A stretch of 55,858 bases of DNA. Origin: an uncultured Gammaproteobacteria bacterium (GTDB taxonomy: Bacteria; Patescibacteriota; Microgenomatia; UBA8517). The position numbers and the translations under genes were made by a program. The notes beneath the pieces were generated by a model. That model was not told where the DNA came from and made no database searches. It saw nothing but the letters and a program-made list of their open reading frames with translations. Below, in pieces: positions 3,150-39,784 of this stretch. The DNA lies in the NCBI GenBank assembly GCA_964506225.1, contig CAZDKH010000009.1:1-55858 (forward strand). The letters are read 5' to 3'. Numbering within the stretch: position 1 is the first letter of the stretch; the number at the start of each line of letters is the position of its first letter.

Positions 3150-5027
3150 TTATTCATTAAAATTATATTCCAAAATTTTGTTGATGATGGAGTGGTTTAT
3201 GGGTTTGATAAGTGACTCAGGAATCTCAATCAAAAACCTGCTTGGTGGATTTGAGGATTTTTGACCAAAATAAAGGCGGCAAGAAGCATAGGTTAGATAC
3301 AAAAGATTCTTTGCCCTCGTCATACCAACATAAGCTAAACGCCTTTCTTCTTCAAGTTCACTAGTTTCCCATAAAGCCCTCGCATGGGGGAAAAGTCCTT
3401 CCTCCATGCCAACAATAAAGACAACAGGAAACTCTAGACCCTTGGCGGCATGGGTAGTCATGAGAGTGACGCTATTTCCTTTATTAATCGTAGCCGATTT
3501 AAGAAATCCCTTTTCATTTTGCTCGGCTTCAACCAAGGTAACGTTTTCCAAAAAGTTTTCTATGTTTGGAAATTCTGTAGCAACCGATCTAAGTTCTTTT
3601 ATATTTTCAAGCCGGGCAATGTTTTCTTCAGATTCTTTTTGGTAAAGCCCAAGGTAATCTGTACTTTGCACAATTTTATCCATCAATTCCAAGGTAGAAT
3701 AATCTTTCAAATCTTCGCGGATTTTTTCGGCAAAATTTTTGAATCTTTCAAAACGATTCTTACCCAGTTTTTTGACCCTTCTTTCAGAAACAACATCAGA
3801 GGGGTTAACTAAAAGTCTTAAAAAAGAAAGTATATCTTTAATTTCTTTTCTCTCATAGAAACGTATTCCACCAACAATTATATAGGGAATACCAAAGTGC
3901 AAGAATGCCTCTTCTAAAACTCTTGACTGCGCGTTTGTTCGATACAAAACCGCAAAGTCTTTAAAATCAAAACCCTCTGTTGTTTTTAAATGCTTGATTT
4001 CACGGCTAACAAAACTAGCTTCATCAAGCCCTGTTTTGGCCTTAAAGATTCTTATTTTTTCTCCAGTGTCGTTTTGGGTCCAAAGGTTTAAAACCGGATG
4101 TGTGGTGTTTTTGGATATAACTGAATTAGCTGCTGACAAAATGTTTTGAGTTGAGCGGTAATTTTGTTCAAGATTGATAATCTTTATATTTGGGAAGTCG
4201 TGTATCAAATTGGTTATATTTCTAAAATCTGCACCGCGCCAACTGTAAATTGATTGAGCCGCGTCTCCAACTGCCGTGATATTTTTTTGTTTACCAACCA
4301 GCAGTTTTGTAAGCTTATACTGAATTTTATTAGTGTCCTGCCATTCGTCAACAAGAACATGGTTTAGTTTGTTTTGCCATTTATCCAAAACCTCCCTTGA
4401 CTCTTCAAATAATTTAACTGCTTTCAAAAGAAGGTCGTCAAAATCCAATGCCCCAACTTCGATTAAAAATTTTTCGTAAGCAGAGTAAATCTTAAAAAAA
4501 GTTTCTTGCCATTCTCCATTGGCAATCTCTGAATAGCCAAGGGGGGTAATCATCTGGTTTTTGACTGACGATATCTCGGAGGCAACGTTTGCTGGACTGT
4601 AAGAGTCTTTTAGTAAATCGAAATCCTTAAGTATCTGCTTAATGGCGTCTTTTTGATCTTCCTCATCATAAATAATAAAACTGGGGTTAATACCAATATA
4701 CTTCCCTTCAAGCCGCAAAATTCTGGCGCAAAAAGAATGAAAGGTTCCTGCAAAAAATGGAGCTTGATTAGAAAGAGTGGTGATTCTTTCTTTCATTTCG
4801 TTAGCAGCTTTGTTGGTAAAAGTTAGAAGAAGAACTTCTTCGGGTTTGGTTTTGCGAGTGGCGATAAGCCAAGCAGCCCGATGGGTTAGAACACGTGTTT
4901 TACCACTTCCCGCCCCGGCCAAGACCAGAAGAGGTCCGCCCTCGTAAGTTACAGCCTGTCTTTGTGGATGATTCAGTTCTTCCAAGAGCTTGTTATAAGA
5001 GTTATCTTTAAATACAATACCCATCAC
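3150..5027 (-). CDS. pcrA: ATP-dependent DNA helicase, UvrD/PcrA family (compact, 625 aa)
   Basis: Walker A AGAGSGKTRVLTHR, DEWQDTN (motif II), YRS, TTHAAKGLEFPVVF and AYVGMTRA. Confidence 0.9.
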   Translation of the reverse strand: MMGIVFKDNSYNKLLEELNHPQRQAVTYEGGPLLVLAGAGSGKTRVLTHRAAWLIATRKTKPEEVLLLTFTNKAANEMKERITTLSNQAPFFAGTFHSFCARILRLEGKYIGINPSFIIYDEEDQKDAIKQILKDFDLLKDSYSPANVASEISSVKNQMITPLGYSEIANGEWQETFFKIYSAYEKFLIEVGALDFDDLLLKAVKLFEESREVLDKWQNKLNHVLVDEWQDTNKIQYKLTKLLVGKQKNITAVGDAAQSIYSWRGADFRNITNLIHDFPNIKIINLEQNYRSTQNILSAANSVISKNTTHPVLNLWTQNDTGEKIRIFKAKTGLDEASFVSREIKHLKTTEGFDFKDFAVLYRTNAQSRVLEEAFLHFGIPYIIVGGIRFYERKEIKDILSFLRLLVNPSDVVSERRVKKLGKNRFERFKNFAEKIREDLKDYSTLELMDKIVQSTDYLGLYQKESEENIARLENIKELRSVATEFPNIENFLENVTLVEAEQNEKGFLKSATINKGNSVTLMTTHAAKGLEFPVVFIVGMEEGLFPHARALWETSELEEERRLAYVGMTRAKNLLYLTYASCRLYFGQKSSNPPSRFLIEIPESLIKPINHSIINKILEYNFNE

Positions 5028-5043
5028 TGGGTTTTATTCTACC

Positions 5044-6120
5044 ATGGAAGAAGAGAAGTTAACCAAACGCAGAATTTTTTTATCAAGATTAAAAAGAAGG
5101 ATTTTAAAGCATCTTTGGTTAACACGGATTGGTTTGTTGGGCATAATTGGCATGGGTGTATCTCTTGTTATTTGGGGAATTGTAGGTTTTATAGGCAAGA
5201 CTAGTCTTGGTTATTATCTAGACCTTGCCAAAAACTTTCTTTTTACCCCATCTGAAGAAGTTTTATCCTTTGAGGGCAGAACCAATGTTTTGATTCTGGG
5301 AAAAGGAGGAGAAGGACATGAGGCGCCGGATTTGACAGACACAATTATTTTTGTTTCCTTCTCTCACAAGAAAGACGACCTTGTTTTTATCTCTATTCCC
5401 CGGGATATTTGGATTCCTGCGCTTCGGGCTAAATTAAACAGCATCTATTATTGGGGGAACCAAAAACAAAGCGGTGGCGGGATACTTTTGGCCAAGTCTT
5501 CGGTAGAGGAAATTTTGGGGCAACCAATTCACTACGCGGCAGTTGTGGACTTTTACGGCTTTTTGAAGGTGATAGATATTTTGGGGGGTATTGATGTTAA
5601 TGTTGAAAATTCTTTTACAGATGAGAAATACCCAATTCCTGGACGAGAAAATGATTTGTGCGAAGGAGATAAAGAACTTAAGTGTAGATACGAGACTGTC
5701 AGATTTGAGAAAGGTTTGCAAACAATGGATTCCGAAACTGCCCTAAAGTTTGTGCGTTCCCGCAATGCCCAAGGTGATGAGGGAACCGATTTTGCCAGAA
5801 GCGCCAGACAGCAGAAAATTATAGATGCGATAATTAAAAAAGTCTCCATGCCTTCGATTTTTCTTTCCAAATCAAAAGTTAGCTCTCTTTGGACAATATT
5901 TAAAGATTCTATCGAAACAGACATAGGCGATTCTGTCTTGGTTATTCTGGTAAGACGCGCTTTTGACGCTAGAGAATCCAAGAGGTCTTTTATTCTACCA
6001 GAGGAGTTTTTAGAGAATCCGCCAATTTCCGCCAAGTATGATAATCTTTATGTCTTTATCCCCAAAAAAGGAGATTGGTCAGAAGTAAAAGAATGGGTAA
6101 AGGAGATTTTGAATAAATGA
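5044..6120 (+). CDS. LytR-CpsA-Psr (LCP) family cell-envelope glycopolymer ligase homolog
   Basis: N-terminal TM helix. NVLILGKGGEGHEAPDLTDTIIFVSF, ISIPRDIW and ALKFVRSRNAQGDEGTDFARSARQQKIIDAI match the LCP domain pattern. Confidence 0.8.
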   Translation: MEEEKLTKRRIFLSRLKRRILKHLWLTRIGLLGIIGMGVSLVIWGIVGFIGKTSLGYYLDLAKNFLFTPSEEVLSFEGRTNVLILGKGGEGHEAPDLTDTIIFVSFSHKKDDLVFISIPRDIWIPALRAKLNSIYYWGNQKQSGGGILLAKSSVEEILGQPIHYAAVVDFYGFLKVIDILGGIDVNVENSFTDEKYPIPGRENDLCEGDKELKCRYETVRFEKGLQTMDSETALKFVRSRNAQGDEGTDFARSARQQKIIDAIIKKVSMPSIFLSKSKVSSLWTIFKDSIETDIGDSVLVILVRRAFDARESKRSFILPEEFLENPPISAKYDNLYVFIPKKGDWSEVKEWVKEILNK

Positions 6121-6128
6121 CTTGAAGA

Positions 6129-8132
6129 TTAAATGACAGTGACTTTATAGACTCTTGATTGTCCGGCTGAGAAAACAGGCTCCCCGAGTTGTGTAAACTT
6201 TTGTTCATTTAAGTTTGGATATTTTTGTCGTTCAAATGCACCAACCACTATATATTCCACTTTATATTTATGCAAAAGATTTCTAGTTTCGTTTAAATTT
6301 TGCGACGTATAAATAATTTGTACATCGTTGACTCTTGCTTGGGGAATCTCCGGTTTTCCCCGCCAGAGCCATTCATGGACAAACCAGCCTTGGACGGTTG
6401 GCAACCCGCTATAAGCTGAAAGAATGTTGTAGTCCGTGTAGCTGTCTCCGGGGGCCTCAAGAATTACTGGTTGTCCAATGACATTTTCCCTAAACCAAAG
6501 GAGTGTAAGGTATTGATCTGGATACTGGCTAGCAAGCCATTTTTCTCCAGAAAGCCCGTGGTAGGTTTTTAGTTCCCCATAATAAGATTTGATTGCAAAG
6601 TATGGATAGATAAGTACACTACTAGCTAGTAGTAAGTAGGTGGTGGTTAGGATGTATTTGTAAAGATATTTTTTTACTAAGAAGAAAGTTCTAACAAAAA
6701 CGTATCCTGCTGACAGATAGCTTACTACAAAAGCCTGGTAGGTAAGTTTAAACATGGTGTTTGCTCTATAGTGTGATGCAGCGTAGATATCTTTGACATA
6801 AATAATCTCGGGAATGATAACAAGAATAAAGGCAGTCAAGAAAAGGCCAAGGATAAATAAATCTGAAACAATAATCTTTCTTTTTCTGCCAAGAATAAGA
6901 AAAAAGATTGTTCCTGTAATTGCCGGAAACCCCCATAAAATTGCCAGTTGCCAAATGCGGGAGTGGCTGTGAACAAATTTTATTCCCTCGGTAATCGATG
7001 AAAAATGAGTCAAGAAGGGTAAAGCAAAAATGATAGCGCCAATTCCAATAGCTCCCATGGTAATTGCTCTTTGGATAAACTTTTTTCTGGTAAGAACAAG
7101 AGAAATTACAAAGGTCAGCAGGGAATAATTTGCAAAGTCCCAAGTGTTTGTCATAATTATTACTCCCAAACAAAAACTCATAAGAATGTGGTTTAGATAT
7201 TTTTTCTTATTGTTTATAGAAATAAAGTGGTTCCACAAAAGCGCCAGATAAAAAATAACGACAGGAAGGTTGAGGAGATGTGCATGAAGGTCAGAAACAA
7301 CAAAGGAATAAATAGGAAATTCGTGAATTGTTTTATCTTCAACGTCGGGGTTGTAACCAATGAAGCGAGTTGCGTCAGGATACCAGTATCTTTCCGTGCC
7401 GTCTTTTAAGATATAAAAGGGAGCGTGGAAATTGCCGGCAAAAACCACCAAAAACGAAGAGGCTATAGCTCCCAAATAGACAATTTGCATTTTTTTGATT
7501 TTTGCTGATAAGAGAAAAGTTGAAACAATTGAGAAGACTTCTGTCAGGGTAAACCCAGCAATGGTTGCAATCATAAGGTTATAGGTAATATCAGAGGGAA
7601 TTTGGGAAATTTTTGTAGCGAAAGCCGTAAAAAGGTGTCCAAACCAGTAGTAATTTATTGCTTTTCCCGCCATCCACATATCAGAAGGAGGAAAAAAATC
7701 ACTTTTTAAGATTGAGTTGATAAAACCAAAGTCCATAAATTTCTCAAGTCCGCGGATATCCGGTTGAAAGCCACGAATTATTGACCAAAAAGAAAGTCCT
7801 AAAAAAAACAAAATTTCTTGAGCCAAAATTATCCTTTTTCGTTCTGTCAAAGTCTTTAATATCTGATTTTTATGCTTTGAGAAAATCAACAGGTTCAGGA
7901 GAGAAAAAGCTGCAAGAATTATATAAAGATTTATGGTTTTGAATGGCAAGATTTTTAGAGTTCCTCCGCAGAAAGCGGTATAAGAAGTAAGAATGAGCCC
8001 AGCAATTTTTGTGAATCCATAGCCGCCGTCAGAAAAACGCCGCAAAAAAAACCATACCAAAGGAAAACTAACTACTCCAATAACCAAAAACACCAACCAC
8101 CAAGTAGTTATGTAGATAATGTCATTTGTCAT
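6129..8132 (-). CDS. Large polytopic membrane protein, GT-C-like / DUF2298-like (Chlor_Arch_YYY type), with a C-terminal soluble domain
   Basis: Many hydrophobic helices. EFPIYSFVVSDLHAHLLNLP and GWFVHEWLWRG motifs as recalled for DUF2298-type proteins. 11-nt overlap with the upstream gene. Confidence 0.5.
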   Translation of the reverse strand: MTNDIIYITTWWLVFLVIGVVSFPLVWFFLRRFSDGGYGFTKIAGLILTSYTAFCGGTLKILPFKTINLYIILAAFSLLNLLIFSKHKNQILKTLTERKRIILAQEILFFLGLSFWSIIRGFQPDIRGLEKFMDFGFINSILKSDFFPPSDMWMAGKAINYYWFGHLFTAFATKISQIPSDITYNLMIATIAGFTLTEVFSIVSTFLLSAKIKKMQIVYLGAIASSFLVVFAGNFHAPFYILKDGTERYWYPDATRFIGYNPDVEDKTIHEFPIYSFVVSDLHAHLLNLPVVIFYLALLWNHFISINNKKKYLNHILMSFCLGVIIMTNTWDFANYSLLTFVISLVLTRKKFIQRAITMGAIGIGAIIFALPFLTHFSSITEGIKFVHSHSRIWQLAILWGFPAITGTIFFLILGRKRKIIVSDLFILGLFLTAFILVIIPEIIYVKDIYAASHYRANTMFKLTYQAFVVSYLSAGYVFVRTFFLVKKYLYKYILTTTYLLLASSVLIYPYFAIKSYYGELKTYHGLSGEKWLASQYPDQYLTLLWFRENVIGQPVILEAPGDSYTDYNILSAYSGLPTVQGWFVHEWLWRGKPEIPQARVNDVQIIYTSQNLNETRNLLHKYKVEYIVVGAFERQKYPNLNEQKFTQLGEPVFSAGQSRVYKVTVI

Positions 8133-9765
8133 AAAGCATATTAAGGATATCTCCTTTTGAGAGTTTTTGGAATTTTTTAAATATTAAGACTGTTGGGTGG
8201 TCGTAAACCTGAAATGTTTCTTCGCTGGCATCATCGTTAATACTGACTCCGAAAATTTCTGGGTACGAAGAAAAACTTGCAATTTGAAAATAACCAAGTT
8301 TTCCGGAAAATAATAATTTGTAATAATTGCTGGTTATTGGATACATATCGGGCAAATGTGTCAGAGTCCCCCATAATCTTCGGCTACTCAGAATGATATA
8401 CTCGCCACTTGCGAGCTTGTCAGCATAATAAAGGGCTTTCTGGAAATTATCAGGTTCATAGATAGTAAGTTGCTCGATTTTGTATAAATTAGGACTTCCT
8501 TCGCTAAGCGGTACCGGCAATCCGTCATCCCAATGCTCGGTATAAAGCGTTGACCCTCGGGGGATGTTTTTGTAAATCCAGTAAGAAGCTTCTATCCTTG
8601 TTTGAGTTTTTGTGTAAATAGAAAAAAAACTAATTCCCCAAACCACGGTTGTAAAGATAACAAAAAAACTTATTGCTTTTCCCAACCAGGTCAACTTGAC
8701 TTCAATCCTCTCCAAAAACCAACCAGAGGCAATAATAAGAAAAGGAATAAGCGGAACAAGATAGCGAACAAACTTTGCGTGCCAGCTGCCGACATAAAGA
8801 AAGTATAAAATAGGAAAACTCAAAAAAACTAAAAGATTCTTGTTTCTTGTTTTTAAAGCAATTAAAAAAAGCAAAATTAAAGCAGAAACTCCAGTTAGTG
8901 CATTTAAACCAACAAGCCAAGGAAGATTAACTAGTTGATATAAAAAAGGAATTGTATTTGTAAATTGGAGGGTGTAGGGAACAGGTAAAGTTCCTTTTAC
9001 TACACCGTGTTCGTACCTCATTGATTCAAAAAATTTTTCCCTGTTCAAAAGAGTGTATGGAGAAAAAATCATAAAAATACTTAAACCCGCTACTACCGCA
9101 ACAGCAGCTAGAACTTGTTTTCTGAGAAAATGCTTTCTTGTCAAGGTTAACAAATGGGCACTAATTGGTATAACGAGAAAAGCCAGTGCAGAAATTTTTG
9201 TTGCAACTGCTAGACCCAAAAAAAATGCGGTAGTTATGTAGGCCGCCGTCTTTTTCTGATTGATGATTCTCAAAGAGAAAATGCATATTAAAAGAGCAAA
9301 AGAGACAAGAAAGCTTTCTGTAACTGCAAAGTGGGCAGATTGGATAAGTCCCGGAACAAAGGCAGAAAGAATGGTAGCATAAAGTGCTGTCTTGAGATTA
9401 AAGAGCTTTCTTGCGAGTATATAAACAAGAAAAATTGAAAGTGTCGAGACAAGAGCTGAAAAGTGTCGTCCAATAAGACTAATATTTCCCCAATCTGTCA
9501 ACCAGCTGCCGTTTTTAGTAAACCAAGCGAGAGTCTCTGCGGCAGCTCTATATAAATAAATAGTAAATCCTCCATAGGCAAAAAATTTTGGGTCAAGTTG
9601 GTCAAAAAAGGAAATTCTGGTTACTGCCATGACAACATTGCGTTCATCGGGGTGAAAATTTAATTTTTCGTCCCAGTTGAGATTGTAAAACCTCATTAAC
9701 CCTCCTAGAAAAGATATCAAGATAATAAAAATAGTTGGAGAAAGTATGTTTTTTTTTGCCCTCAT
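8122..9765 (-). CDS. Polytopic membrane protein, GT-C fold (ArnT/PMT family-39-like) glycosyltransferase candidate
   Basis: Start moved to the ATG at 9765 (MRAKKNILSP...), because the longer track ORF overlaps the upstream gene. HPDERNVV in the first loop, at least 10 hydrophobic helices, C-terminal soluble domain ending ...EETFQVYDHPTVLIFKK. Confidence 0.5.
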   Translation of the reverse strand: MRAKKNILSPTIFIILISFLGGLMRFYNLNWDEKLNFHPDERNVVMAVTRISFFDQLDPKFFAYGGFTIYLYRAAAETLAWFTKNGSWLTDWGNISLIGRHFSALVSTLSIFLVYILARKLFNLKTALYATILSAFVPGLIQSAHFAVTESFLVSFALLICIFSLRIINQKKTAAYITTAFFLGLAVATKISALAFLVIPISAHLLTLTRKHFLRKQVLAAVAVVAGLSIFMIFSPYTLLNREKFFESMRYEHGVVKGTLPVPYTLQFTNTIPFLYQLVNLPWLVGLNALTGVSALILLFLIALKTRNKNLLVFLSFPILYFLYVGSWHAKFVRYLVPLIPFLIIASGWFLERIEVKLTWLGKAISFFVIFTTVVWGISFFSIYTKTQTRIEASYWIYKNIPRGSTLYTEHWDDGLPVPLSEGSPNLYKIEQLTIYEPDNFQKALYYADKLASGEYIILSSRRLWGTLTHLPDMYPITSNYYKLLFSGKLGYFQIASFSSYPEIFGVSINDDASEETFQVYDHPTVLIFKKFQKLSKGDILNMLYDK

Positions 9766-11073: not shown

Positions 11074-11811
11074 TTAGACTACCAGGAGTACTGCCCAGAA
11101 AACCAGAACCAGTCCTATACCAACCAAAAGAATAGTTGGCAAGCTAATTCCAGCTTCGGGTAGTGCTGCTCCAACTGGTGTGAGTGTAGGCGTGGGCGAT
11201 GCCTGTGCGAGAGTCTTGGTTGGCGTAGGAGTAGACGTAGAGGTGGGGGTTGGTGTGGAAGTTGCACTAGGTGTTGATGTTGGTGTGGGCGTGGGTGTTG
11301 GTGTCAAAGTTCCGGTTGGGGTGGGACTGGGTGTGCCTGTTGGCGTTGGAGTGGGGGTGGGTATAGAAGTACTAATTGTAAATGTAAGTGCTTCACAGGA
11401 AGTTTTTAATCCTTCAATATGTCCAAAGTCTAAACATTCAACAGTTCCCTCAACACGCCAATCAAATCCTTCCTTGGGTACACTAACCTTCCCCAGATTG
11501 ACAACTTGTCCTGGCTCAACCAAGGGAACATCGAGTGTTTGAACTAGCTGATTATTGATATAGACTTTTGCCTGCTGGGGATTTACTGCACTACCGGAAG
11601 TATTTGTCACTTGGACATTTCCAAATTTATCGACAGAGAAATTATACTTTTCACAATCCCAGGCTTTAGGCTGGGATTCAGGATAAGTAGGAGAAACAGA
11701 GCTTTGTCTTAGTTGATATAACCTGACAGCGGTAAATATGGCGACTCCAGCTAGAATTATTGTTGCTAAGATTATTAGAATTGTTGTTGAGTTTTTCTTG
11801 ATTGTATCCAT
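11074..11811 (-). CDS. Secreted/anchored surface protein: N-terminal TM or signal anchor, small beta-rich domain, long Thr-Pro linker, C-terminal LPEAG + hydrophobic tail (sortase-type signal)
   Basis: ATG at 11811, 2 nt after the upstream stop. (TP)n tract over about 60 residues. LPEAG at 11149-11163 is followed by ISLPTILLVGIGLVLVFWAVLLVV. Confidence 0.65.
   Translation of the reverse strand: MDTIKKNSTTILIILATIILAGVAIFTAVRLYQLRQSSVSPTYPESQPKAWDCEKYNFSVDKFGNVQVTNTSGSAVNPQQAKVYINNQLVQTLDVPLVEPGQVVNLGKVSVPKEGFDWRVEGTVECLDFGHIEGLKTSCEALTFTISTSIPTPTPTPTGTPSPTPTGTLTPTPTPTPTSTPSATSTPTPTSTSTPTPTKTLAQASPTPTLTPVGAALPEAGISLPTILLVGIGLVLVFWAVLLVV
11176..11364 (-). repeat. (Thr-Pro)n-coding low-complexity tract
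   Basis: Encodes IPTPTPTPTGTPSPTPTGTLTPTPTPTPTSTPSATSTPTPTSTSTPTPTKT...TPTLTP. Confidence 0.9.
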
Positions 11812-11813
11812 TT

Positions 11814-12797
11814 TTAAATCCACCCCACCACTGTATGATGTATTTCAGCATTCACGGTAATAGTCAAAGAAGTTTGTCCTGTTGGAATTTCCGGTATAGT
11901 GTATTCATCATAGAATTCCTGAGTTCCCGGCCTTTTTGCTGTAACAGGATTTCTTTGGACACCATTTATCGTAAATCTTCCCATATCAAAGCTTCCGCTA
12001 GTTGCGCTACCGACTACTGTGAAACGAACGATGGTTTTGGGTTTGAGTTTAGCAAGCTCAGCCATACTAAGCTCATTCCAGTCCTTGTCAAAGGCTTTGA
12101 TGTTTAGACATTGTGCGCTGATATCCGCAGCCGGAGTGGGTGTAGAGGTGGGTATAAGAGTTGGTGTAGGTGTGGGGGTTGGTTTGATTACACAAGGTTG
12201 ATTTGTTTCGCAAAGGCTAACCAATTCCCAATTTTGGGTGGTTGAACCCTTAGGTCTTCTATCAACTTGATTACATGCCCCCGGTTGATTTCCAAAAATC
12301 ATTCTTGGGTTCACTCCCACATCAGGAGTTTGACATCTTCTATCCGGAGAACATTGGTCACAGATAAAAGTGATATATTCCCACTCTTCTTGAGGGGGCT
12401 TAGTTTGGCAGTCAGGATGGCTTGCGCAAACTCCTGTCCCCTGTGGTCCTTGCCAGCGACCGTCCGACCCGCAAGTATATTGCTGACACTCTTGAGTGTT
12501 GCAGTGAACCTCTCCAGGATTGGCCCAACCATCACATTTCTGGACAGCCGCTTTTTCTTGTAGTTGTCGCTGTTGGACAAGAACCACTCCTGCTCCAACC
12601 CCAACAACTAGAAGTAGGATACCCAAAATTGTTGCAATAGTTTTTTTGCGACTTCCTCCAAACCCTCCCAAGACCCTTTTTAACCTGTTTTGGTCTTCTT
12701 CTGGGTTTGCTCGCGGGGGTTCATTGGCATTTACCATAAATGCTGGAAGCTGATTTTCTAGAGGTTGTTGTGTATTTGTTTGATAGACTGGATCCAT
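11814..12797 (-). CDS. Membrane-anchored extracellular protein with a 12-Cys module, a TP linker and a C-terminal beta-rich domain
   Basis: TM helix TIATILGILLLVVGVGAGVVLV. 12 Cys between KCDGW and NQPCVIK. Linker KPTPTPTPTLIPTSTPTP. No recognisable family. Confidence 0.6.
   Translation of the reverse strand: MDPVYQTNTQQPLENQLPAFMVNANEPPRANPEEDQNRLKRVLGGFGGSRKKTIATILGILLLVVGVGAGVVLVQQRQLQEKAAVQKCDGWANPGEVHCNTQECQQYTCGSDGRWQGPQGTGVCASHPDCQTKPPQEEWEYITFICDQCSPDRRCQTPDVGVNPRMIFGNQPGACNQVDRRPKGSTTQNWELVSLCETNQPCVIKPTPTPTPTLIPTSTPTPAADISAQCLNIKAFDKDWNELSMAELAKLKPKTIVRFTVVGSATSGSFDMGRFTINGVQRNPVTAKRPGTQEFYDEYTIPEIPTGQTSLTITVNAEIHHTVVGWI
12132..12185 (-). repeat. (Thr-Pro)n-coding tract
   Basis: Encodes KPTPTPTPTLIPTSTPTP. 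Confidence 0.9.
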
Positions 12798-12801
12798 GAT
12801 A

Positions 12802-14184
12802 TTAATTTGCTCCCTTTTTCCAAATAATAAAGCTTGTAGAAATTAGGCCTAAACTCATCATAAGAAGAGCAATAGTTGGTGTCAAGTCTCCAGCTGTTGG
12901 AATTCCTGAAGTAGTAGAAGGTAGTGAAACTCTTGGTGTTGGAGAGGGACTAGCGGTTGGTGTAATTGGTCTAGTGGGAGTGGGAGTTGAAGTTGGTTTA
13001 GGTGTTGGAGTAGAAGTGGGTGTCTTAGTTGGAGTGGGAGTTGGCGTTGGGGTGGTTGCCGATGGAGAAGATTCAAAAGCCGGCCCCTCGGCTGCCAACA
13101 CGGTAAAGCTTCTGGTTATGGTTCTTAAGATTCCACTGGAATCTCGCCAGCTAATGGTGATAGTGTGTTCCCCCTCGGTAAGATCGCTGGGAGGAGACCA
13201 TTGCCAACTTCCTGATGACCCGATAGTAAGTGTTTTAATTATTGGTTCTGACTCAAGTTTTATTGTGATTGTTGTGCCGGGGGGGCCTTGACCAAAAAAT
13301 TCTGGCTTTGTGGTGGTAATGCTTTCTTTTTCCTTGATGCTTATTAAACTAACAGTGGTGGGAAATTTATCTGTCCCGGTTGTTGAGGTGATTCTTGGAG
13401 AGGATGTGGACTGGGGAAGTTCCAGTGAAGCTTTGGGTAACTCTAGGGAGTTTTCTTCATTTCTAAAATCATAAGTTTGCCCGAGAGTGATTGATGGAGC
13501 GGGACTTGCGCTTTCTAAAAACACTTGAGCTGAGGCAATACCCCGAGGCCCCCCTTGAACAAATATATTAATAGTAGGGTCTTTTGCAGAAATAGGTAGG
13601 TACGAAGAAAGGTCTGGGTAGGTTCGGCTGGTACTAATGGGAATTACCCAGCTTCCATTGGATGAGGTTTTGGTAACCAGCGGACTTCCTCCGGCGGCAG
13701 TTGCATAGACTAAAACATTTGCAGCCGGTTGGCCCGAAGCGGTAAGGATTGTGCCTGAAATTACCTGTGTTGAAGGAATAGAGTCAATCTTGGGAGCGGT
13801 AGTAACTGACCATGGTATGCCGCTATTATCAAATTCAACTCCACCTGAGTTTATTTTAAAGTAGTAGTTGGTTAATGGATTTAGATTATTTATGGTTACT
13901 AAGTTGGTGGTTGTTGGTTTATTTTCTTCAAAGGATACTGTCTTGTTGATTGATGAATTTGACTCTCCCCAAATTATATAACCGACATACTCTTTATCAG
14001 TAGTCCAAGAGACTGTAAATGAGGAGTCAGTAATATTGGTAACCCTGATATTTTTAGGTGCTTTTTCGGCTTGAGCCCCAAGCCTAAAGACCTGACTTCG
14101 TTCAACTAGAAAGACTCCGATTCCTATCCCGACTATCAAAACAAAAAGACCGATAATTGTTGGAATTGTAAACTTTTTTTTCAT
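12802..14184 (-). CDS. Surface protein: N-terminal TM, FN3-like domain, carboxypeptidase-regulatory-like and Ig-like domains, TP-rich linker, C-terminal IPTAG-TM-KK sorting signal
   Basis: NIRVTNITDSSFTVSWTT (FN3-like). ISGTILTASGQPAANVLVYA (CarboxypepD_reg-like). TP tract of 48 residues. IPTAG (12889-12903), then a hydrophobic helix, then KKGAN. Confidence 0.7.
   Translation of the reverse strand: MKKKFTIPTIIGLFVLIVGIGIGVFLVERSQVFRLGAQAEKAPKNIRVTNITDSSFTVSWTTDKEYVGYIIWGESNSSINKTVSFEENKPTTTNLVTINNLNPLTNYYFKINSGGVEFDNSGIPWSVTTAPKIDSIPSTQVISGTILTASGQPAANVLVYATAAGGSPLVTKTSSNGSWVIPISTSRTYPDLSSYLPISAKDPTINIFVQGGPRGIASAQVFLESASPAPSITLGQTYDFRNEENSLELPKASLELPQSTSSPRITSTTGTDKFPTTVSLISIKEKESITTTKPEFFGQGPPGTTITIKLESEPIIKTLTIGSSGSWQWSPPSDLTEGEHTITISWRDSSGILRTITRSFTVLAAEGPAFESSPSATTPTPTPTPTKTPTSTPTPKPTSTPTPTRPITPTASPSPTPRVSLPSTTSGIPTAGDLTPTIALLMMSLGLISTSFIIWKKGAN
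12928..13071 (-). repeat. (Thr-Pro)n-coding low-complexity tract
   Basis: Encodes SSPSATTPTPTPTPTKTPTSTPTPKPTSTPTPTRPITPTASPSPTPRV. Confidence 0.9.
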
Positions 14185-14480
14185 TCTGAAATTTGGACCT
14201 CTTCGCTGGTACTTTGTGGTTTTTCGACGGTTAGTGTAGGTGTTGGTGTTGGTTTGTTAATCTTAATTTCGGACTCCTCAAAGTGCATTCTTTCTTGTAG
14301 CTTATCTAGAGTATTGGCGTCAAGGGTGGGGTCAATCGGTGAAAGGATTTCTGGAGGAACACCTACATCTGGTCTTTTGGTTAACGCCCTGTAAACTTCA
14401 AATGAAACCCAGACTATAATTGTGATTACAGTTAACGCAGTAATGACCACAAGTTTTGGGGCGCGTATCTTTGTTCTCAT
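14181..14480 (-). CDS. Small single-pass membrane protein with a short TP motif (hypothetical)
   Basis: TM helix LVVITALTVITIIVWVSF. KPTPTPTLT near the C-terminus. 4-nt overlaps on both sides indicate translational coupling. Confidence 0.5.
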   Translation of the reverse strand: MRTKIRAPKLVVITALTVITIIVWVSFEVYRALTKRPDVGVPPEILSPIDPTLDANTLDKLQERMHFEESEIKINKPTPTPTLTVEKPQSTSEEVQISE

Positions 14481-15133
14481 TGATTTAAATTACTACTTTC
14501 AAGATAGGGCACTAAGCCGGTAATAGACAAAAGTATCTGGTTTTCCTGGGGGACAATACTAAAAGTAGCACTTTCTAAAACATAAGGCCTTCTTAAGTTT
14601 TCTAATTGGGAAAATAAAGTTGTCAGAAGTGGGTAATCTCCTTGAACGTCCAAAGAAATACTGAAACTTTTAAAATCATTTACCTCTTGAGAATTTGCAG
14701 TTTGTTGGTTGCTGCTTGTACCGAGTAAAGATACCCTACCAAGAGTAAATTTTTTCAAGACGAGAGAATTTTTTTGAACCAGTGCTTCAAGTTGACGTGA
14801 ATATTTAAGTGGATCCGGAGAGTTGGGAATGGCGCTATCCAAAAGTGAAATTTTGCTAAATTCACGAGAGTAAAGATTCTTGGCTTTATTGAGGTTAGTT
14901 ATTTTGGATTCCATCTCGGCAAGAGTTTTTTCTTTCTCTTTAATATCGTTTACCAGTTGGGCAATTGTCAACAATGTGGGTCTTATGGCCCCAAGAACAA
15001 AAAAAGCAATTGCAAGAAGTGTCAGAAGAATTTCCAGAAACATACGGACATCCTCTCTTTTCCTATAAAAAAGAGAGATATTCATAAAATATTGTTTGTA
15101 TCTTAAATAACCTGTTTGCCAGCTTACTGCCAT
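14477..15133 (-). CDS. PilO-like type IV pilus assembly protein
   Basis: Single TM helix (FLEILLTLLAIAFFVLGAI) followed by a coiled-coil and a ferredoxin-like C-terminal region. It lies directly after the PilN-like gene. Confidence 0.5.
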   Translation of the reverse strand: MAVSWQTGYLRYKQYFMNISLFYRKREDVRMFLEILLTLLAIAFFVLGAIRPTLLTIAQLVNDIKEKEKTLAEMESKITNLNKAKNLYSREFSKISLLDSAIPNSPDPLKYSRQLEALVQKNSLVLKKFTLGRVSLLGTSSNQQTANSQEVNDFKSFSISLDVQGDYPLLTTLFSQLENLRRPYVLESATFSIVPQENQILLSITGLVPYLESSNLNQ

Positions 15134-15134
15134 A

Positions 15135-15692
15135 TTATTTTTCTTTCTTTAAACTTGCACTTATGGTGAAATTTACTCCTGGCTTATCAGCTTTTATATC
15201 TATCTGATCTACGCTCACGTTCTCAAATTTTCCAGAGTGTTCCAAGTTTGAGACAAATTGCAGAATTGATTGTTCGGAAAAACTTGTTGCAGTTATTTTA
15301 AGGACGCCTTTATCTAAATTCCATTTAATAAGAGTAACTTCAGGAGGTAAAAGAGAAACACTACTGGAAAGTACAGGGAAGAACTTATTGTCTTCTTTTG
15401 TGATTTCTGAGAAAAATTTAAGCTTTTTTTGAGCAAGTTTGAAATTTTTTTCAAGATCCGAGAATGATTTGATAATTGATTGTCTTTGGGTTAGTTCGTC
15501 ATTCAGATTCGAAATTTTCGCATCCAGCCAAAATCTTGAGACAAAAGCAGCCACGACAATAAGCTCTGTGATAATAACTATAATTCTGAAAGTTGACAGT
15601 ATCCACGTTAAAACCCTACCGGCAGTAGAAGCTGCAAATTCCTCTTGCGGCAAAAGATTTACACTAGGCTTTTTTTTCCTCAGGGCAGCCAT
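15135..15692 (-). CDS. PilN-like type IV pilus assembly protein
   Basis: N-terminal SVNLLPQEEF (the PilN INLLP-type motif), single TM helix, coiled-coil, small C-terminal domain. Confidence 0.6.
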   Translation of the reverse strand: MAALRKKKPSVNLLPQEEFAASTAGRVLTWILSTFRIIVIITELIVVAAFVSRFWLDAKISNLNDELTQRQSIIKSFSDLEKNFKLAQKKLKFFSEITKEDNKFFPVLSSSVSLLPPEVTLIKWNLDKGVLKITATSFSEQSILQFVSNLEHSGKFENVSVDQIDIKADKPGVNFTISASLKKEK

Positions 15693-15754
15693 ATAACTAC
15701 TTTAAATATAACACACAGAAATTGCCGAGAGAAGAATTATTTAATCCAGAGGAA

Positions 15755-16018
15755 TTACTTTTTGGATTTTGTTTTAGTTTTTGTTTTTGGAAGGAGTTTG
15801 GAAAGACTACTTTTGATGCGGGCGGCCTTGTTGCGGTGAATAACTTTCTTTTTGACAGCGCGGTCTGCAAGAGAAAACGCCTTGGCAATTGCAGTTTTGG
15901 ACTTGGACTTTTTAGCCAGACGAATAGCCAGGTCTAATAGTTTTCTAATCTTTTCGTTTACAAGTTTTTTTCTTCTCGAACCCCGAAGGGCTCTTTTGGC
16001 TGTTTTGGTTACCGGCAT
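15755..16018 (-). CDS. rpsT: 30S ribosomal protein S20
   Basis: MPVTKTAKRALRGSRRKKLVN...VIHRNKAARIKSSLSKLL; size and basic composition are typical. Confidence 0.85.
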   Translation of the reverse strand: MPVTKTAKRALRGSRRKKLVNEKIRKLLDLAIRLAKKSKSKTAIAKAFSLADRAVKKKVIHRNKAARIKSSLSKLLPKTKTKTKSKK

Positions 16019-16092
16019 CTTAGGAATTCAAAAATTGTGAATTCAATTTTCCTGATATCGACAGTATAATTTACCAAGGCTCAAATATCAAT

Positions 16093-17811
16093 ATGTTTGA
16101 CAAGATTTTTAAAAGGGGTAAGAGGCTTGTTACTGGTCCACAAAACTCTGTTCTTTCTGCAGCAACAATCATCATGTTTATGGTTGTTGCTTCAAGAGTG
16201 TTGGGTTTGGTGCGCCAAAGGGTACTTGCCCATTTTTTTACTCCTGAATCTTTATCACTTTTTTTTGCAGCCTTTAGATTGCCGGACCTTGTATTTGAAG
16301 TCTTGGTCTTTGGGACTTTTTCCTCGGCTTTTATTCCGGTTTTCACAAAAGCTTTAAATAAGAGTAAAAAAGAAGCTTGGGATATTGCTGGAAGGGTTGT
16401 GAATATAGGCCTTTTGATATTTATAGTTTTTGCCTTTTGTTTTAGCTTTTTTTCAGAACCGTTTTATACTATCCTGGCCCCAGGTTATTCGGTCGAAGAC
16501 ACACGCAAAATTGCTTCAATCGCAAAAATTTTATTCGCTGCCCAAGGTTTTTTTGTTGTCAGTTATGTCCTAACTGGGGTACTCGAATCCCTAAGAAGAT
16601 TTTTAATTTCTGCCCTAGCTCCAGTTTTTTACAACCTAGGAATTATTTTAGGGACTTTGATTTTCTCTCCCTTTTTGGGTTTACCAGGTCCCGGGTATGG
16701 AGTATTTCTTGGTGCACTACTTCATTTCTCAGTTCAACTGCCCTTCGCTTACAAACTGGGTTTTAGATTTAGTAGAAATATCAAACCAACCCAAGGCGTA
16801 ATTCAGATAGCCAGACTTGCCATTCCCCGTGTGATTGACCTTTCCTTTCAACAGATTGCAAAGACTGTTGAACTTTTTTTCGCATCAATTATCTCTACCG
16901 CCTCTTATACTTACTTTACTTTTGCAAATACACTTCAGCTTTTGCCAGTTGGAATTTTTGGCGTGTCTTTGGCAAAGGCCTCTTTACCAACTCTTTCTGC
17001 CCAGTCTGAAGATTATAAGGCATTTCGTAAGACTCTTTTTACCACCCTTTATCAGATTGTTTTTTTGGTTCTTCCATTATCGACTACACTTATTGTTTTA
17101 AGGATTCCCATAGTACGCTTGGTTTTTGGAACCGGAATTTTTGATTGGCAGTCTACAGTCCAAACAGGCTTAGTTTTAACTGCTTTTGCAGTGGGTATAG
17201 TATTTCAATCGGCCTCTGCCCTTTTGGCAAGAGGATTTTATGCACTTCATGACACAAAAACGCCAGTTGCTATCTCTATTGGTGCGGTTCTAATTACAAT
17301 TGCAAGCGATATTATTCTAGTGGGAGGTTTTTCTTTACCTGTCTGGGCGCTTGCTGCTTCCTTCTCTTTGGGCGCAATATTCCAGGCTCTTTTGTTATTT
17401 TTCTTTCTGGTAAAAAGGATAGACCATACTTTACCACTGGATTCGATTATACCCATGATAAAAAGTTTTATTGCCGCCTTGGCTTCAGGAATAGTTATGT
17501 TTTTCTTTCTCAAACTTTTTGACCGTTCTGTATGGGTAAAAAGACTCTCTTTTTTACAGGGCGTTGACCCGGAGACAGCTCTTTCTTTTAATCGCTTTGT
17601 GTTGGATACCCGCTACACTGTTAATCTATTTATTTTAACTTCGTTAGTAGCATTGGTTGGTTTTTTTGTTTATTTAATGTTTTCCTACTTTCTAAAATCG
17701 CAAGAGCTTGCGTCTTTTGTTAGTTTATTAAAACGCAGGAAAATTGGTGCTCCCCCAACAAAAGAAGCTGAACCACTTTCTCTTCCGACGAGTGAGAGCG
17801 TTAATACTTGA
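16093..17811 (+). CDS. murJ: Lipid II flippase MurJ/MviN
   Basis: Polytopic protein. N-terminus ...AATIIMFMVVASRVLGLVRQRVLAHFF and FRLPDLVFEVLVFGTFSSAFIPVF are typical MurJ motifs. Confidence 0.85.
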   Translation: MFDKIFKRGKRLVTGPQNSVLSAATIIMFMVVASRVLGLVRQRVLAHFFTPESLSLFFAAFRLPDLVFEVLVFGTFSSAFIPVFTKALNKSKKEAWDIAGRVVNIGLLIFIVFAFCFSFFSEPFYTILAPGYSVEDTRKIASIAKILFAAQGFFVVSYVLTGVLESLRRFLISALAPVFYNLGIILGTLIFSPFLGLPGPGYGVFLGALLHFSVQLPFAYKLGFRFSRNIKPTQGVIQIARLAIPRVIDLSFQQIAKTVELFFASIISTASYTYFTFANTLQLLPVGIFGVSLAKASLPTLSAQSEDYKAFRKTLFTTLYQIVFLVLPLSTTLIVLRIPIVRLVFGTGIFDWQSTVQTGLVLTAFAVGIVFQSASALLARGFYALHDTKTPVAISIGAVLITIASDIILVGGFSLPVWALAASFSLGAIFQALLLFFFLVKRIDHTLPLDSIIPMIKSFIAALASGIVMFFFLKLFDRSVWVKRLSFLQGVDPETALSFNRFVLDTRYTVNLFILTSLVALVGFFVYLMFSYFLKSQELASFVSLLKRRKIGAPPTKEAEPLSLPTSESVNT

Positions 17812-20983: not shown

Positions 20984-21376
20984 TTACTTTACTTCTTGAT
21001 ATTTCTCGTATTTTTTGAAAATCTTCATAAGTTTTATGTCAAAGCTTTCTAGCTTTGCTTTGTTTTCTAGGGTCTCTGCGATCAGGAGGCAATCGTAAAA
21101 GCTTATGTTTTCGCCTTTGTAGATTGTTAAGGCTAGAGGAGTAAATTGCGGTGATGAGATATTTGGTTGTTTGATAAAGGCAAACAGACTCTCACAAATA
21201 TCTAATTTTCTTGCTTGGTAATGATTTTCTAGAATAAAGACAGTTTCGGCTAAAACAATTGTGGCTATGTAGATTTTTTTGGTTTTGGAAAGTGTCTCTT
21301 TTGCTTTTTGTGCTTGTTCTGGTATGTCTTTGGTAAAAAAGCGAATAAGATAATTAGTATCCAGATAGATTGTCAT
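20984..21376 (-). CDS. vapC: PIN-domain toxin, VapC family
   Basis: IYLDTNYLIRF (first acidic residue), LAETVF, FYDCLL, SFD. 4-nt overlap with the upstream antitoxin. Confidence 0.8.
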   Translation of the reverse strand: MTIYLDTNYLIRFFTKDIPEQAQKAKETLSKTKKIYIATIVLAETVFILENHYQARKLDICESLFAFIKQPNISSPQFTPLALTIYKGENISFYDCLLIAETLENKAKLESFDIKLMKIFKKYEKYQEVK

Positions 21377-21618
21377 TTATCTTTTTGTGAGAAGAGCTTG
21401 GTTCTTATCAGTTTATCAAGTTTTTTGTTGCTTAAAGGTTTTACTTTAGGATTGGCTAATTTGCCATATAGAGAATCAATAGTTGCAAGCTTTGAAATAA
21501 GAATTTGTCCATTAACGAGGCTAAAAATGACTTTGTCGGTAGGTTTGATGCCTACCTTTTTTCGCAGTTCGGTCGGGATAGTTATTTGTCCCTTGCTGGT
21601 AACGGTTGATATTTGCAT
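21373..21618 (-). CDS. vapB: AbrB/SpoVT-MazE-fold antitoxin (VapB-type)
   Basis: VTSKGQITIPTELRKKVGIKPTDKVIF is the swapped-hairpin AbrB-type DNA-binding motif. Confidence 0.8.
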   Translation of the reverse strand: MQISTVTSKGQITIPTELRKKVGIKPTDKVIFSLVNGQILISKLATIDSLYGKLANPKVKPLSNKKLDKLIRTKLFSQKDK

Positions 21619-39091: not shown

Positions 39092-39784
39092 ATGAAAAAA
39101 CGTTTAGTTATCAAATTTATTGCCTTTGTCATGGGTTTGGTTGGAGTATCTTTGCTTTCCTATGTTTTTTTCCCAATCCTTTCTTATGAGATGACTTCCC
39201 GACCGCGCTTTGCAAGTTTTCTTTCGCCTATTCCCGAAAATCCCATCTTCGCTGCGAATTCAGAAAACATGGATTATACACAAGCGAGTAATTGGTTTAT
39301 TGGGGGAGTAAAAAGCGAGGGCTTTAATCGTTCTAAGGTTGATTATTATACAATTTCGATACCTGCCTTAGGAATTGAGCAGGCAACGGTAGCAGTTGGT
39401 GGGGAGGATCTTTCAAAACACCTTATCCAGTATCCGGGGACAGCCCAGCCCGGAAAAATCGGTAACGCCGTGATATTTGGGCACTCAATACTTCCCCAAT
39501 TTTATAATCCCAAAGATTATATCGCCATTTTTTCAACGCTACACACAATTAAAAAGGGAAGTGAGATACTTGTCTATTTTGATGGTATGTCTTTCAAATA
39601 TAGAGTTGAAGATAAATTTGAAGTTTTACCTACTGATATTCAGATTTTAGAGCAAGACATGAGTGATTCATTTATAACTTTGGTCACGTGTGTTCCACCG
39701 GGAGACCCAAGACGTCCTCGACGCCTTATAGTTCGTGCTAAAATAGTGCCACTGGGAGAAATTGATGCGGCTTCTTGGAATTGA
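39092..39784 (+). CDS. Sortase-family transpeptidase
   Basis: N-terminal TM anchor. Catalytic triad context: GNAVIFGHS (His), FITLVTCVPPG (TLxTC Cys), RRLIVRAKI (Arg). Confidence 0.85.
   Translation: MKKRLVIKFIAFVMGLVGVSLLSYVFFPILSYEMTSRPRFASFLSPIPENPIFAANSENMDYTQASNWFIGGVKSEGFNRSKVDYYTISIPALGIEQATVAVGGEDLSKHLIQYPGTAQPGKIGNAVIFGHSILPQFYNPKDYIAIFSTLHTIKKGSEILVYFDGMSFKYRVEDKFEVLPTDIQILEQDMSDSFITLVTCVPPGDPRRPRRLIVRAKIVPLGEIDAASWN

Follow-up and report, generated by a model that had tools for sequence, protein, structure and literature searches.

PilN and PilO are encoded with four lineage-specific envelope proteins in a conserved operon of Woesebacteria-like Microgenomatia

The 55,858-nucleotide contig CAZDKH010000009.1 (GenBank assembly GCA_964506225.1; the whole of this stretch is referred to below as the window) carries on its minus strand a cluster of six genes, g1 to g6, at positions 11074-15692, which we identify as a conserved envelope operon of a Woesebacteria-like lineage of Microgenomatia within the candidate phyla radiation (CPR). 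The first two genes encode a genuine PilN and a genuine PilO, two bitopic membrane proteins that, as a pair, ring the base of the type IV filament machine. The other four encode membrane-tethered, extracytoplasmic, lineage-specific envelope proteins on Thr/Pro-rich (TP) stalks. Tentatively, and at somewhat less than an even chance, we favor the explanation that the PilN/PilO pair serves type IV pili (T4P) together with a PilM encoded elsewhere and that g3-g6 are its wall-side partners. All six minus-strand open reading frames (ORFs) are present where an initial sequence-only reading of the window had placed them, as follows (aa, amino acids; nt, nucleotides; TM, transmembrane).

15135..15692, minus strand: g1, PilN, 185 aa, Pfam PF05137
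14477..15133, minus strand: g2, PilO, 218 aa, identified by family profile and Foldseek; the gene lies 1 nt past the pilN stop
14181..14480, minus strand: g3, small bitopic protein, 99 aa, no Pfam or NCBIfam family
12802..14184, minus strand: g4, 460 aa, with FN3, beta-sandwich and Ig-like domains
11814..12797, minus strand: g5, 327 aa, conserved TM segment and C-terminal Ig-like domain, no named family
11074..11811, minus strand: g6, 245 aa (start ATG 11811) or 249 aa (start GTG 11823), variable envelope protein

g1 scores 37.7 bits against the Pfam PilN family PF05137 (cutoff 22.8) over residues 112-180, and the top match in the Protein Data Bank (PDB) of a profile made from five members of its family is Myxococcus xanthus PilN (3jc8; E=8.2e-5), with an alignment that spans the TM segment through the core domain. 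The protein begins with a basic N-terminus and an [IV]NLLP.EEF peptide (residues 11-19), continues with a single hydrophobic TM segment (about residues 31-49) and a coiled-coil stretch, and ends in the PilN domain; its topology is that of a PilN-type bitopic protein. Within the N-terminal peptide, N12-L13-L14-P15, E18 and F19 are invariant in an alignment of 12 PilN sequences, and INLLP is, we presume, the canonical PilM-docking motif of PilN. The 60-residue N-terminus by itself had no match when compared with PDB sequences using phmmer. We found 1737 relatives of g1 at E<=1e-3, the top 120 of which are all about 185 aa long. Relatives are labeled PilN or Tfp pilus assembly protein PilN by their sources, and the PilN label of g1 is already present in public databases.

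For g2, Pfam scores are sub-threshold, both for PilO (PF04350; 13.7 bits, cutoff 22) and for T2SSM (17.5 bits, cutoff 27.8), and some g2 homologues carry a precomputed match to PF04350 described as faint. A profile of 13 homologues nevertheless matched PilO of 3jc8 in the PDB (E=2.4e-5), followed more weakly by Pseudomonas aeruginosa PilO (5uvr/2rjz). The fold leads to the same place. An AlphaFold2 (AF2) model with a predicted local distance difference test (pLDDT) score of 72.6 consists of a TM helix, a long coiled coil and an alpha/beta core, and its top Foldseek match is PilO (3jc8_Oa, E=1e-6; 2rjz, 6.5e-4; 5uvr, TM-score normalized to the target of 0.65), with PilO-like Amuc_1100, PulM and EpsL coming after PilO. 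There is a single TM segment at about residues 32-50, and the domain that follows the coiled coil at the C-terminus is ferredoxin-like. Residues 1-30 of g2 form a conserved cytoplasmic N-terminal helix (M.xGW...Y.RY..YFLNI...Y.KR.DV.MFLEIL), in which W5, R11, Y12, F16 and Y23 are nearly invariant. That g1 and g2 are homologues of PilN and PilO, which the sequence-only reading had recognized from their layouts, is thus borne out by Pfam for g1, by PDB family profiles for both proteins and by the fold of g2; the profile searches did not show either protein to be anything else.

How firmly are the six genes held together? We assembled genomic neighborhoods using PilO and PilN homologues, GTDB genomes and JGI metagenomes, and scored each locus with hidden Markov models of the six families, which gave 79 distinct related loci. 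In 76 of the 79, the genes present run as a prefix of g1-g2-g3-g4-g5-g6. Seventeen loci extend at least 5.6 kb beyond the g1 start, and 14 of these contain exactly the six genes. The remaining three each depart in a different way: L041 stops at g4, L093 is without g5, and L076 has a tandem duplication of the g5-g6 pair (12861-16520) in which the second g5 carries a completely different Cys-rich part. g5 is also missing from L054, and the g6 proteins of both L054 (8018-8488) and L093 (12989-13477) combine a g5-like N-terminus with a g6-type C-terminal anchor. In L065 (4919-6076), g6 bears a copy of the Ig-like domain of g5, and a third gene in L080 (14660-15496) joins a g5-type N-terminal TM segment to a g6-type C-terminal anchor. 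From this comparison we conclude that g1-g4 are an invariant core and that g5 and g6 are mosaic. g3 was found in every locus that reaches its position, except for L020, where there was no g3 match.

The surroundings of the six genes are also shared. The order IF2-NusA-DnaJ-DnaK-GrpE-HrcA-MurJ, rpsT, g1-g6, then (sometimes after an amine oxidase) a PMT, DUF2298 or TMEM260-like gene, LCP (LytR-CpsA-Psr), UvrD and FemAB is found across the lineage, and L007 is the only locus in which the six-gene block stands under different upstream genes. Between loci, DnaK is 82-88% identical, compared with roughly 37-60% for the g1-g6 proteins. Conservation of the six-gene order, which the sequence-only reading had suggested checking in relatives, held up when their neighborhoods were compared.

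A second argument of the sequence-only reading, that close spacing is evidence for a six-gene unit, did not survive. g1 and g2 are separated by a 1-nt gap (15135/15133), g2 and g3 overlap by 4 nt (14480/14477), as do g3 and g4 (14184/14181), and a 4-nt gap separates g4 from g5 (12802/12797). Between g5 and g6 the gap is 2 nt (11814/11811), given that g6 starts at ATG 11811. The alternative start at GTG 11823, which yields a 249-aa protein and a 10-nt overlap, is used by a mechanical ORF list and by the JGI gene call; the N-termini of homologues (MKxxxKxK...) favor the ATG. In the window as a whole, however, same-strand gaps have a median of 6 nt, and of the 35 such gaps 15 are no longer than 5 nt, some of them between unrelated genes such as murJ and hrcA. 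Since tight packing is the norm throughout the genome, the junctions by themselves are no evidence of a functional unit, and we rejected them as proof of coupling. It is the conservation of order, not the tightness of the junctions, that exceeds chance. The same-strand gene upstream of g1, at a distance of 62 nt, is the following.

15755..16018, minus strand: rpsT, ribosomal protein S20, Pfam Ribosomal_S20p

No terminator-like site was found between rpsT and g1 or inside the g1-g6 block; the region upstream of rpsT contains a promoter-like site at 16091-16063. rpsT may be co-transcribed with g1-g6, as context that lies outside the module.

Each of g3-g6 has an N-terminal hydrophobic segment and a TP-rich stretch. 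Their description as four N-terminally anchored proteins with TP linkers is accurate in these two respects and incomplete in another, as g4 and g6 are anchored at the C-terminus as well. It was also said that the four families have no recognizable function, and this remains the case after searches of Pfam and NCBIfam and, for g5, of PDB sequences and structures (Foldseek), which leave the four as envelope proteins without named relatives.

The smallest of the four, g3, has no match in Pfam or NCBIfam. It consists of a basic N-terminus, a TM segment, a conserved outside peptide of about 35 aa (VP.EILEP..P.LD...L..I..R.FF.E.E) and a variable TP/acidic tail, and the core amounts to about 70 aa. 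Minimal forms of 72-76 aa, seen in an alignment of 17 sequences, stop directly after the conserved peptide. g3 contains no Cys and therefore has no lipobox.

g4 is the best conserved of the four. Its order of domains is a TM/signal segment, FN3, a CarboxypepD_reg-like beta-sandwich, a Big_13 Ig-like domain, a TP-rich stalk and a C-terminal motif with a TM segment. The FN3, CarboxypepD_reg and Ig-like calls made from sequence all hold (fn3, 38.2 bits; Big_13, 38.1 bits), with the CarboxypepD_reg match at 24.4 bits falling below its cutoff; a profile search of the PDB retrieved FN3 only. At the N-terminus, the TM/signal segment is conserved as K-IPTIIG...GAGV.LV...Q.FRLGA, and at the C-terminus an xPx[S/A]G.LTPT motif precedes a TM segment and a WKK tail. 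In an alignment of 12 sequences, the protein in the window shares 44-64% identity with its homologues, and the mean column identity is 60%. Of the 859 representatives that the family has at E<=1e-30, over 100 are full length (about 430-480 aa).

In g5, a Pro-rich cytoplasmic N-terminus, variable yet with conserved short motifs, leads into a conserved Gly-rich TM segment of the GxxxG type (IATILG.LLLVGG.GAGVILVQQQQ.IREKA). The Cys-rich module that follows is hypervariable: it was described from sequence as a 12-Cys module, and 12 Cys are indeed present here (13 in the whole protein), and across homologues the module ranges from 0 to about 350 aa, so that there is a minimal 200-aa form of g5 without it. 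After a TP linker, the protein ends in a conserved Ig-like domain of about 100 aa that terminates in IHH.TLGWF. g5 had no match in Pfam, NCBIfam or PDB sequences, and the 51 relatives of the C-terminal domain are all without functional annotation. The AF2 model of this domain is a complete beta-sandwich with a pLDDT of 93, for which Foldseek found no PDB match at E<=1e-3 and only TM-scores below 0.5. As modeled, the C-terminal domain of g5 is a new Ig-like domain without a PDB match. The JGI label "plastocyanin" on one g5 relative was rejected as unsupported.

g6 opens with a conserved N-terminal TM/signal segment (..ILAGIAIFTA.RLYQLRQ..VAPTAP). Its variable module is weakly CARDB-like in the window (13.9 bits, below the cutoff) and is replaced elsewhere by Cys-rich knots or by nothing. 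The protein ends with a long TP stalk, an LP[EDS][AS]G..[WL]PT motif and a TM segment, with no basic tail.

The Gly-rich TM and juxtamembrane regions of g4 and g5 are nearly alike (I[PA]TI[IL]G..L[LI].G.GAGV.LV..Q..[IF]R..A), and within the sequences compared the Q..R..A juxtamembrane motif is found in g4 and g5 only. This shared stretch may mediate an interaction or act as a lineage-specific signal for export. Compared with the PDB, it shows a weak likeness, at the level of chance, to the dimerizing TM helix of ErbB2. We also considered whether the N-termini of g4, g5 and g6 are divergent prepilin signals and rejected this, as they contain no Gly/Phe cleavage site and no Glu5.

The tails of g4 and g6, in which a conserved Pro-x-x-Gly motif precedes a hydrophobic segment, resemble the LPXTG sortase signal; when the g4 tails are compared with TIGR01167, only the TM part aligns. 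The window contains a sortase gene, and two genes for GT-C-type glycosyltransferases lie on the g6 side of the cluster.

39092..39784, plus strand: sortase, 230 aa, TLVTC catalytic motif intact, Pfam Sortase 81 bits
8122-9765, minus strand: PMT-family GT-C gene, Pfam PMT_2/PMT, just downstream of g6
6129-8132, minus strand: DUF2298 GT-C-type gene, Pfam DUF2298

The sortase scores 50.1 bits against TIGR01076 (cutoff 39.35) and does not reach any class-specific model. Sortase is near-ubiquitous in Microgenomates (PMC6744442), and from its sequence the protein encoded here is a candidate enzyme for the xPx[A/S]G signals of g6 and perhaps of g4. In related loci with identified downstream ORFs, a PMT, DUF2298 or TMEM260-like gene follows g6 (or g4), which makes the adjacent GT-C enzymes candidate O-glycosylators of the TP stalks. 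The glycosyltransferases of relatives are either PMT proteins of about 800 aa that carry PMT_4TMC, or proteins of the TMEM260-like type. The two GT-C genes of the window belong to an island of envelope genes (1299-9765) on the g6 side of the cluster, which also contains two tandem FemAB-family genes and an LCP gene. Just before the sortase gene, a 723-aa membrane protein is encoded at 36914-39085 on the plus strand, ending 6 nt before the sortase gene; its cytoplasmic N-terminal region of about 340 aa is followed by one TM segment and, on the outside, by a Baseplate_J-like domain (28.7-30.3 bits). The idea that this is a hidden PilM/GspL-like protein was dropped, as the N-terminal 340 aa have no Pfam or PDB support.

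If g1 and g2 are a PilN/PilO pair, where are the other pilus genes? Genes for PilM, PilB, PilC, PilT, PilD, a secretin or a pilin were not found in the window by Pfam (ORFs of at least 110 aa), a regular-expression scan for the prepilin GFTLIE-type motif gave 0 matches in all six frames, and a Pfam search detected no secretin domain in g4-g6 or elsewhere in the window. Thus, the absence from the window of pilM, pilB/T/C, secretin, prepilin peptidase and pilin genes, noticed from the sequence, is confirmed by Pfam and the motif scan. We read the source genome over about 76 kb around the cluster. JGI Pfam calls contain no pilus gene in the 10 kb beyond each end of the window, and there is none within 10 kb in the flanks of any related locus, including by Pfam on flanking ORFs without a known identity. 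That pilM is not adjacent to g1 and g2 is likewise true of all related loci examined. At the end of the window, from 55642 and running off it (L015:11168-11533), a small gene with a match to T4SS_pilin (PF18895, TrbC/VirB2-type) lies between ftsJ and a ribosomal protein operon; this is not a type IV pilus gene.

The literature on CPR suggests that these genes are present at another place in the genome. The T4P machinery is near-universal in CPR (PMC6744442, PMC12206443), with pilB/T/M/C conserved in most classes of Patescibacteria (PMC12206443), and the absence of PilQ is expected for these bacteria (PMC6744442). In Saccharibacteria, pilM, pilN and pilO occur together with pilB and pilC (PMC12206443). 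By contrast, for the one T4P locus of the closed Microgenomates genome Ch65, PilA, minor pilins and PilD/B/T/C/M are listed, but no PilN or PilO (PMC7143001). A PilM locus without PilN/O fits a lineage in which pilN and pilO have moved away from pilM. Taking the conserved NLLP peptide and this literature together, the lack of PilM beside PilN and PilO most likely means that PilM is encoded elsewhere.

How might the pair and the four proteins encoded after it work together? In the explanation that we tentatively favor, the PilN/PilO pair would work with a cytoplasmic PilM and, through PilM, with PilB and PilC, encoded at a separate T4P locus; that PilN keeps the putative [IV]NLLP docking peptide suggests that the pair still works with PilM, which binds the first residues of PilN (PMC6325625). 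g3 and g4 would hold the operon positions of pilP and pilQ of diderms; with their conserved TM segments and the stretches next to the membrane they may bind the PilN/PilO ring and continue it through the wall of a secretin-free cell. g5 and g6 would then use this platform to present variable, disulfide-rich modules on the cell surface. The TP stalks may be O-glycosylated by the adjacent PMT-type glycosyltransferases, and g6, perhaps also g4, could be processed or linked to the wall by the sortase of the genome at the xPx[A/S]G signal.

Several observations weigh against this explanation. The [IV]NLLP peptide of g1 is at residues 11-15, behind about nine basic residues, rather than at the extreme N-terminus. 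No pilM, pilB or pilC was seen in about 100 loci or in the roughly 76 kb around the cluster, and the rest of the genome might contain a second pilMNO set, or no T4P genes. As to wall linkage, TIGR01167 LPXTG_anchor was the only NCBIfam match of the g6 tails, at 11.2-15.2 bits with a cutoff of 15.9, and g6 is without the basic tail expected of a sortase signal. We found no RNA run containing the cluster sequence; the single public run is hot-springs metagenome DNA. Other objections amount to an explanation of their own, which we consider somewhat less probable than the favored one, namely that PilN and PilO serve T4P and that g3-g6 are ordinary anchored surface glycoproteins (adhesins, or envelope- or S-layer-associated proteins of an episymbiont) that merely share the transcription unit. 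Unrelated genes keep their order across the lineage too, and this macro-synteny, together with the tight spacing found genome-wide, makes order and coupling weak evidence of interaction. Moreover, the neighbors of the operon are themselves envelope genes (MurJ, two FemAB, LCP, PMT and DUF2298), and the FN3 and Ig-like domains of which g4 is built are of a generic adhesin type. Hypervariability, module swapping and duplication mark g5 and g6, which are absent, fused or otherwise altered in L041, L054, L093, L076, L080 and L065; such behavior is easier to reconcile with free-standing adhesins or display proteins than with structural parts of a machine. Such passengers, however, would not be expected to behave as g3 and g4 do, since these never part from PilN/O in the 79 loci (apart from the missing g3 match in L020), and the six-gene block outlasts a changed upstream context in L007. 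In addition, the conserved part of g3, a TM segment and a short peptide, is more like a complex subunit than an adhesin, and sequence conservation extends to the TM segments of g4 and g5.

It is also conceivable, although we regard it as improbable, that the PilN/PilO pair has left T4P altogether and forms a membrane ring or cage that organizes g3-g6 into a distinct envelope-spanning structure. This is close to what the sequence-only reading had proposed, that the pair may scaffold or position a set of surface proteins rather than act only in a canonical pilus alignment complex. There are published precedents for PilN/O outside T4P (PMC10823254, PMC13319060), the loci examined contain no T4P gene in their 10-kb flanks, and the link to four unique families is fixed; inside the cell, PilM could be replaced by the 30-aa cytoplasmic extension of g2 or by the Pro-rich cytoplasmic region of g5. 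Yet the PilM-docking-type peptide on PilN is invariant, which argues for a PilM partner, and T4P, which are near-universal in CPR, require the PilN/O pair (PMC6744442, PMC12206443). Because the Ch65 T4P locus lists PilM but no PilN/O, a pair such as this one is the obvious candidate to serve it, and none of g3-g6 resembles a polymerizing subunit, since all are membrane-tethered. With the peptide invariant and T4P genes widespread in CPR, our results do not establish a scaffolding role of the pair in place of one in a pilus. The more elaborate form of this idea, in which a PilN/O ring is reused for a new display organelle with g3/g4 as its wall-crossing core and g5/g6 as exchangeable disulfide-rich recognition cassettes that face the host, seems to us about equally improbable. 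Least probable by far is that the cluster encodes a Pam-type pilus, a CPR-specific pilus built by donor-strand exchange, with g4 as a PamR-like FnIII anchor and the Ig-like domain of g5 as a strand acceptor. Pam pili do occur in Microgenomatia, with Ig-like domains, helpers with a C-terminal TM segment and an FnIII protein with a C-terminal TM segment (bioRxiv 10.64898/2026.03.03.709456), and g4 combines FN3 and Ig-like domains with a TM segment at its C-terminus. With TM segments in every one of g3-g6, however, none is a candidate for a secreted, anchor-free pilin; the g5 domain is modeled as a complete sandwich (pLDDT 93) and has no PapD-like or pilin match in the PDB; the genes that neighbor Pam (ATP synthase, corB, MFS) are missing from the window; and PilN/O are not mentioned in the Pam paper (bioRxiv 10.64898/2026.03.03.709456). 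Comparing the Pam proteins by description only, we rejected membership on the basis of the anchors and the gene context.

Other features of the window are typical of CPR/Patescibacteria, including MurJ, HrcA-GrpE-DnaK-DnaJ, FemAB, LCP, sortase and a fused rpoB-rpoC, and its GC fraction is about 0.40. Metagenome contigs that match it come from JGI samples 3300010284 and 3300022548 (a 111-kb contig), and there is a match to a Logan assembly as well. The fused rpoB-rpoC is a 2325-aa ORF at 41492-48469 on the plus strand that contains all Rpb2 (beta) and Rpb1 (beta') domains, and the JGI call is also 2325 aa. A gene pair for a MazE-like antitoxin and a PIN-domain toxin (20984-21618, minus strand) is inserted between dnaK and dnaJ, a position at which it does not occur in the related loci with inspected gene calls; one related locus has another small gene pair (HicA-like, by a faint match) between hrcA and murJ. 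Among the relatives of the locus in GTDB, there are records with the titles Patescibacteria group and Candidatus Woesebacteria. Five further GTDB records of metagenome-assembled genomes (L008, L009, L010, L012 and L013) bear the title "uncultured Gammaproteobacteria bacterium", which, given their CPR-type locus and synteny, looks wrong.

T4P are regarded as central to the attachment of ultra-small CPR to host cells and to their life there. We know of no account of how monoderm, secretin-free CPR link the base of the pilus to or through the wall and surface layers. If the explanation that we favor is right, g3-g6 are four widespread candidate families for the parts that link the pilus base to the wall; g4 alone comprises hundreds of clusters at 50% identity. 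That the alignment pair is encoded apart from PilM in this lineage affects how CPR pilus loci are annotated and counted. g5 and g6 are plausible determinants of host recognition or of exposure to phage. Should the link to the pilus not be real, the operon would be a conserved surface-glycoprotein cluster, ordinary yet useful for the annotation of CPR "dark matter," and if a display organelle is involved, it would be a new surface organelle for recognition between episymbiont and host.

Searching the literature, we found no description of a fixed link between PilN/O and the g3-g6 families, of a split from pilM or of LPxAG-type tails. The individual parts of the operon nonetheless resemble several known systems. 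Like the LPXTG proteins of Gram-positive bacteria and GspA of A. oris, which has an LCP glycosylation pathway, g4 and g6 have an N-terminal signal, a Ser/Thr/Pro-rich stalk and a C-terminal Pro-x-x-Gly motif with a hydrophobic segment, and here too the genome or neighborhood encodes a sortase, LCP and glycosyltransferases. The motif, however, is LPEAG or xPxSG, its scores are just below the cutoff, g6 has no basic tail, and cleavage and wall linkage are putative. The proteins of Pam pili (PamA/B, PamC/D and PamR) are likewise CPR-specific, occur in Microgenomatia and have Ig-like and FnIII modules and C-terminal TM anchors, but the operon described here has no free pilin subunit, stands in another gene context and contains PilN/O, which have not been reported for Pam.

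The closest parallel in gene order is the alignment operon of type IVa pili, pilMNOPQ in P. aeruginosa and M. xanthus and pilMNOWQ in Thermus. The topology and fold of PilN and PilO and the adjacency of their genes are shared, PilN has an N-terminal NLLP-type peptide there also, and envelope proteins are encoded after pilO, which in diderms link the ring to outer layers. In our loci, pilM is not adjacent, and there is no other pilus gene within 10 kb in any of them. In place of a PilP lipoprotein and a secretin, there are four lineage-specific TP-stalk proteins, two of which have sortase-like anchors. The T4P of other CPR (loci 1 and 2 of Saccharibacteria TM7x and Microgenomates Ch65) share the monoderm CPR context, PilN/O as alignment factors and the absence of PilQ. 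In TM7x, however, pilM/N/O sit with pilB and pilC (PMC12206443), whereas here pilN and pilO are split off with genes for surface proteins.

Finally, PilN and PilO are encoded away from pilus genes in two other systems. The flagellar cage of H. pylori, which consists of PilMNO, is a proposed scaffold through the wall (PMC10823254), and pilM is kept in its operon, whereas it is absent from our locus. In the archaellum cluster of Litorilinea aerophila, PilN and PilO-LysM occur without PilM/P/Q and are a proposed scaffold for passage through, or anchoring in, the wall (PMC13319060). Our locus differs from both in that it contains neither flagellar nor archaellum genes, and the partners of PilN and PilO are instead four novel surface proteins.

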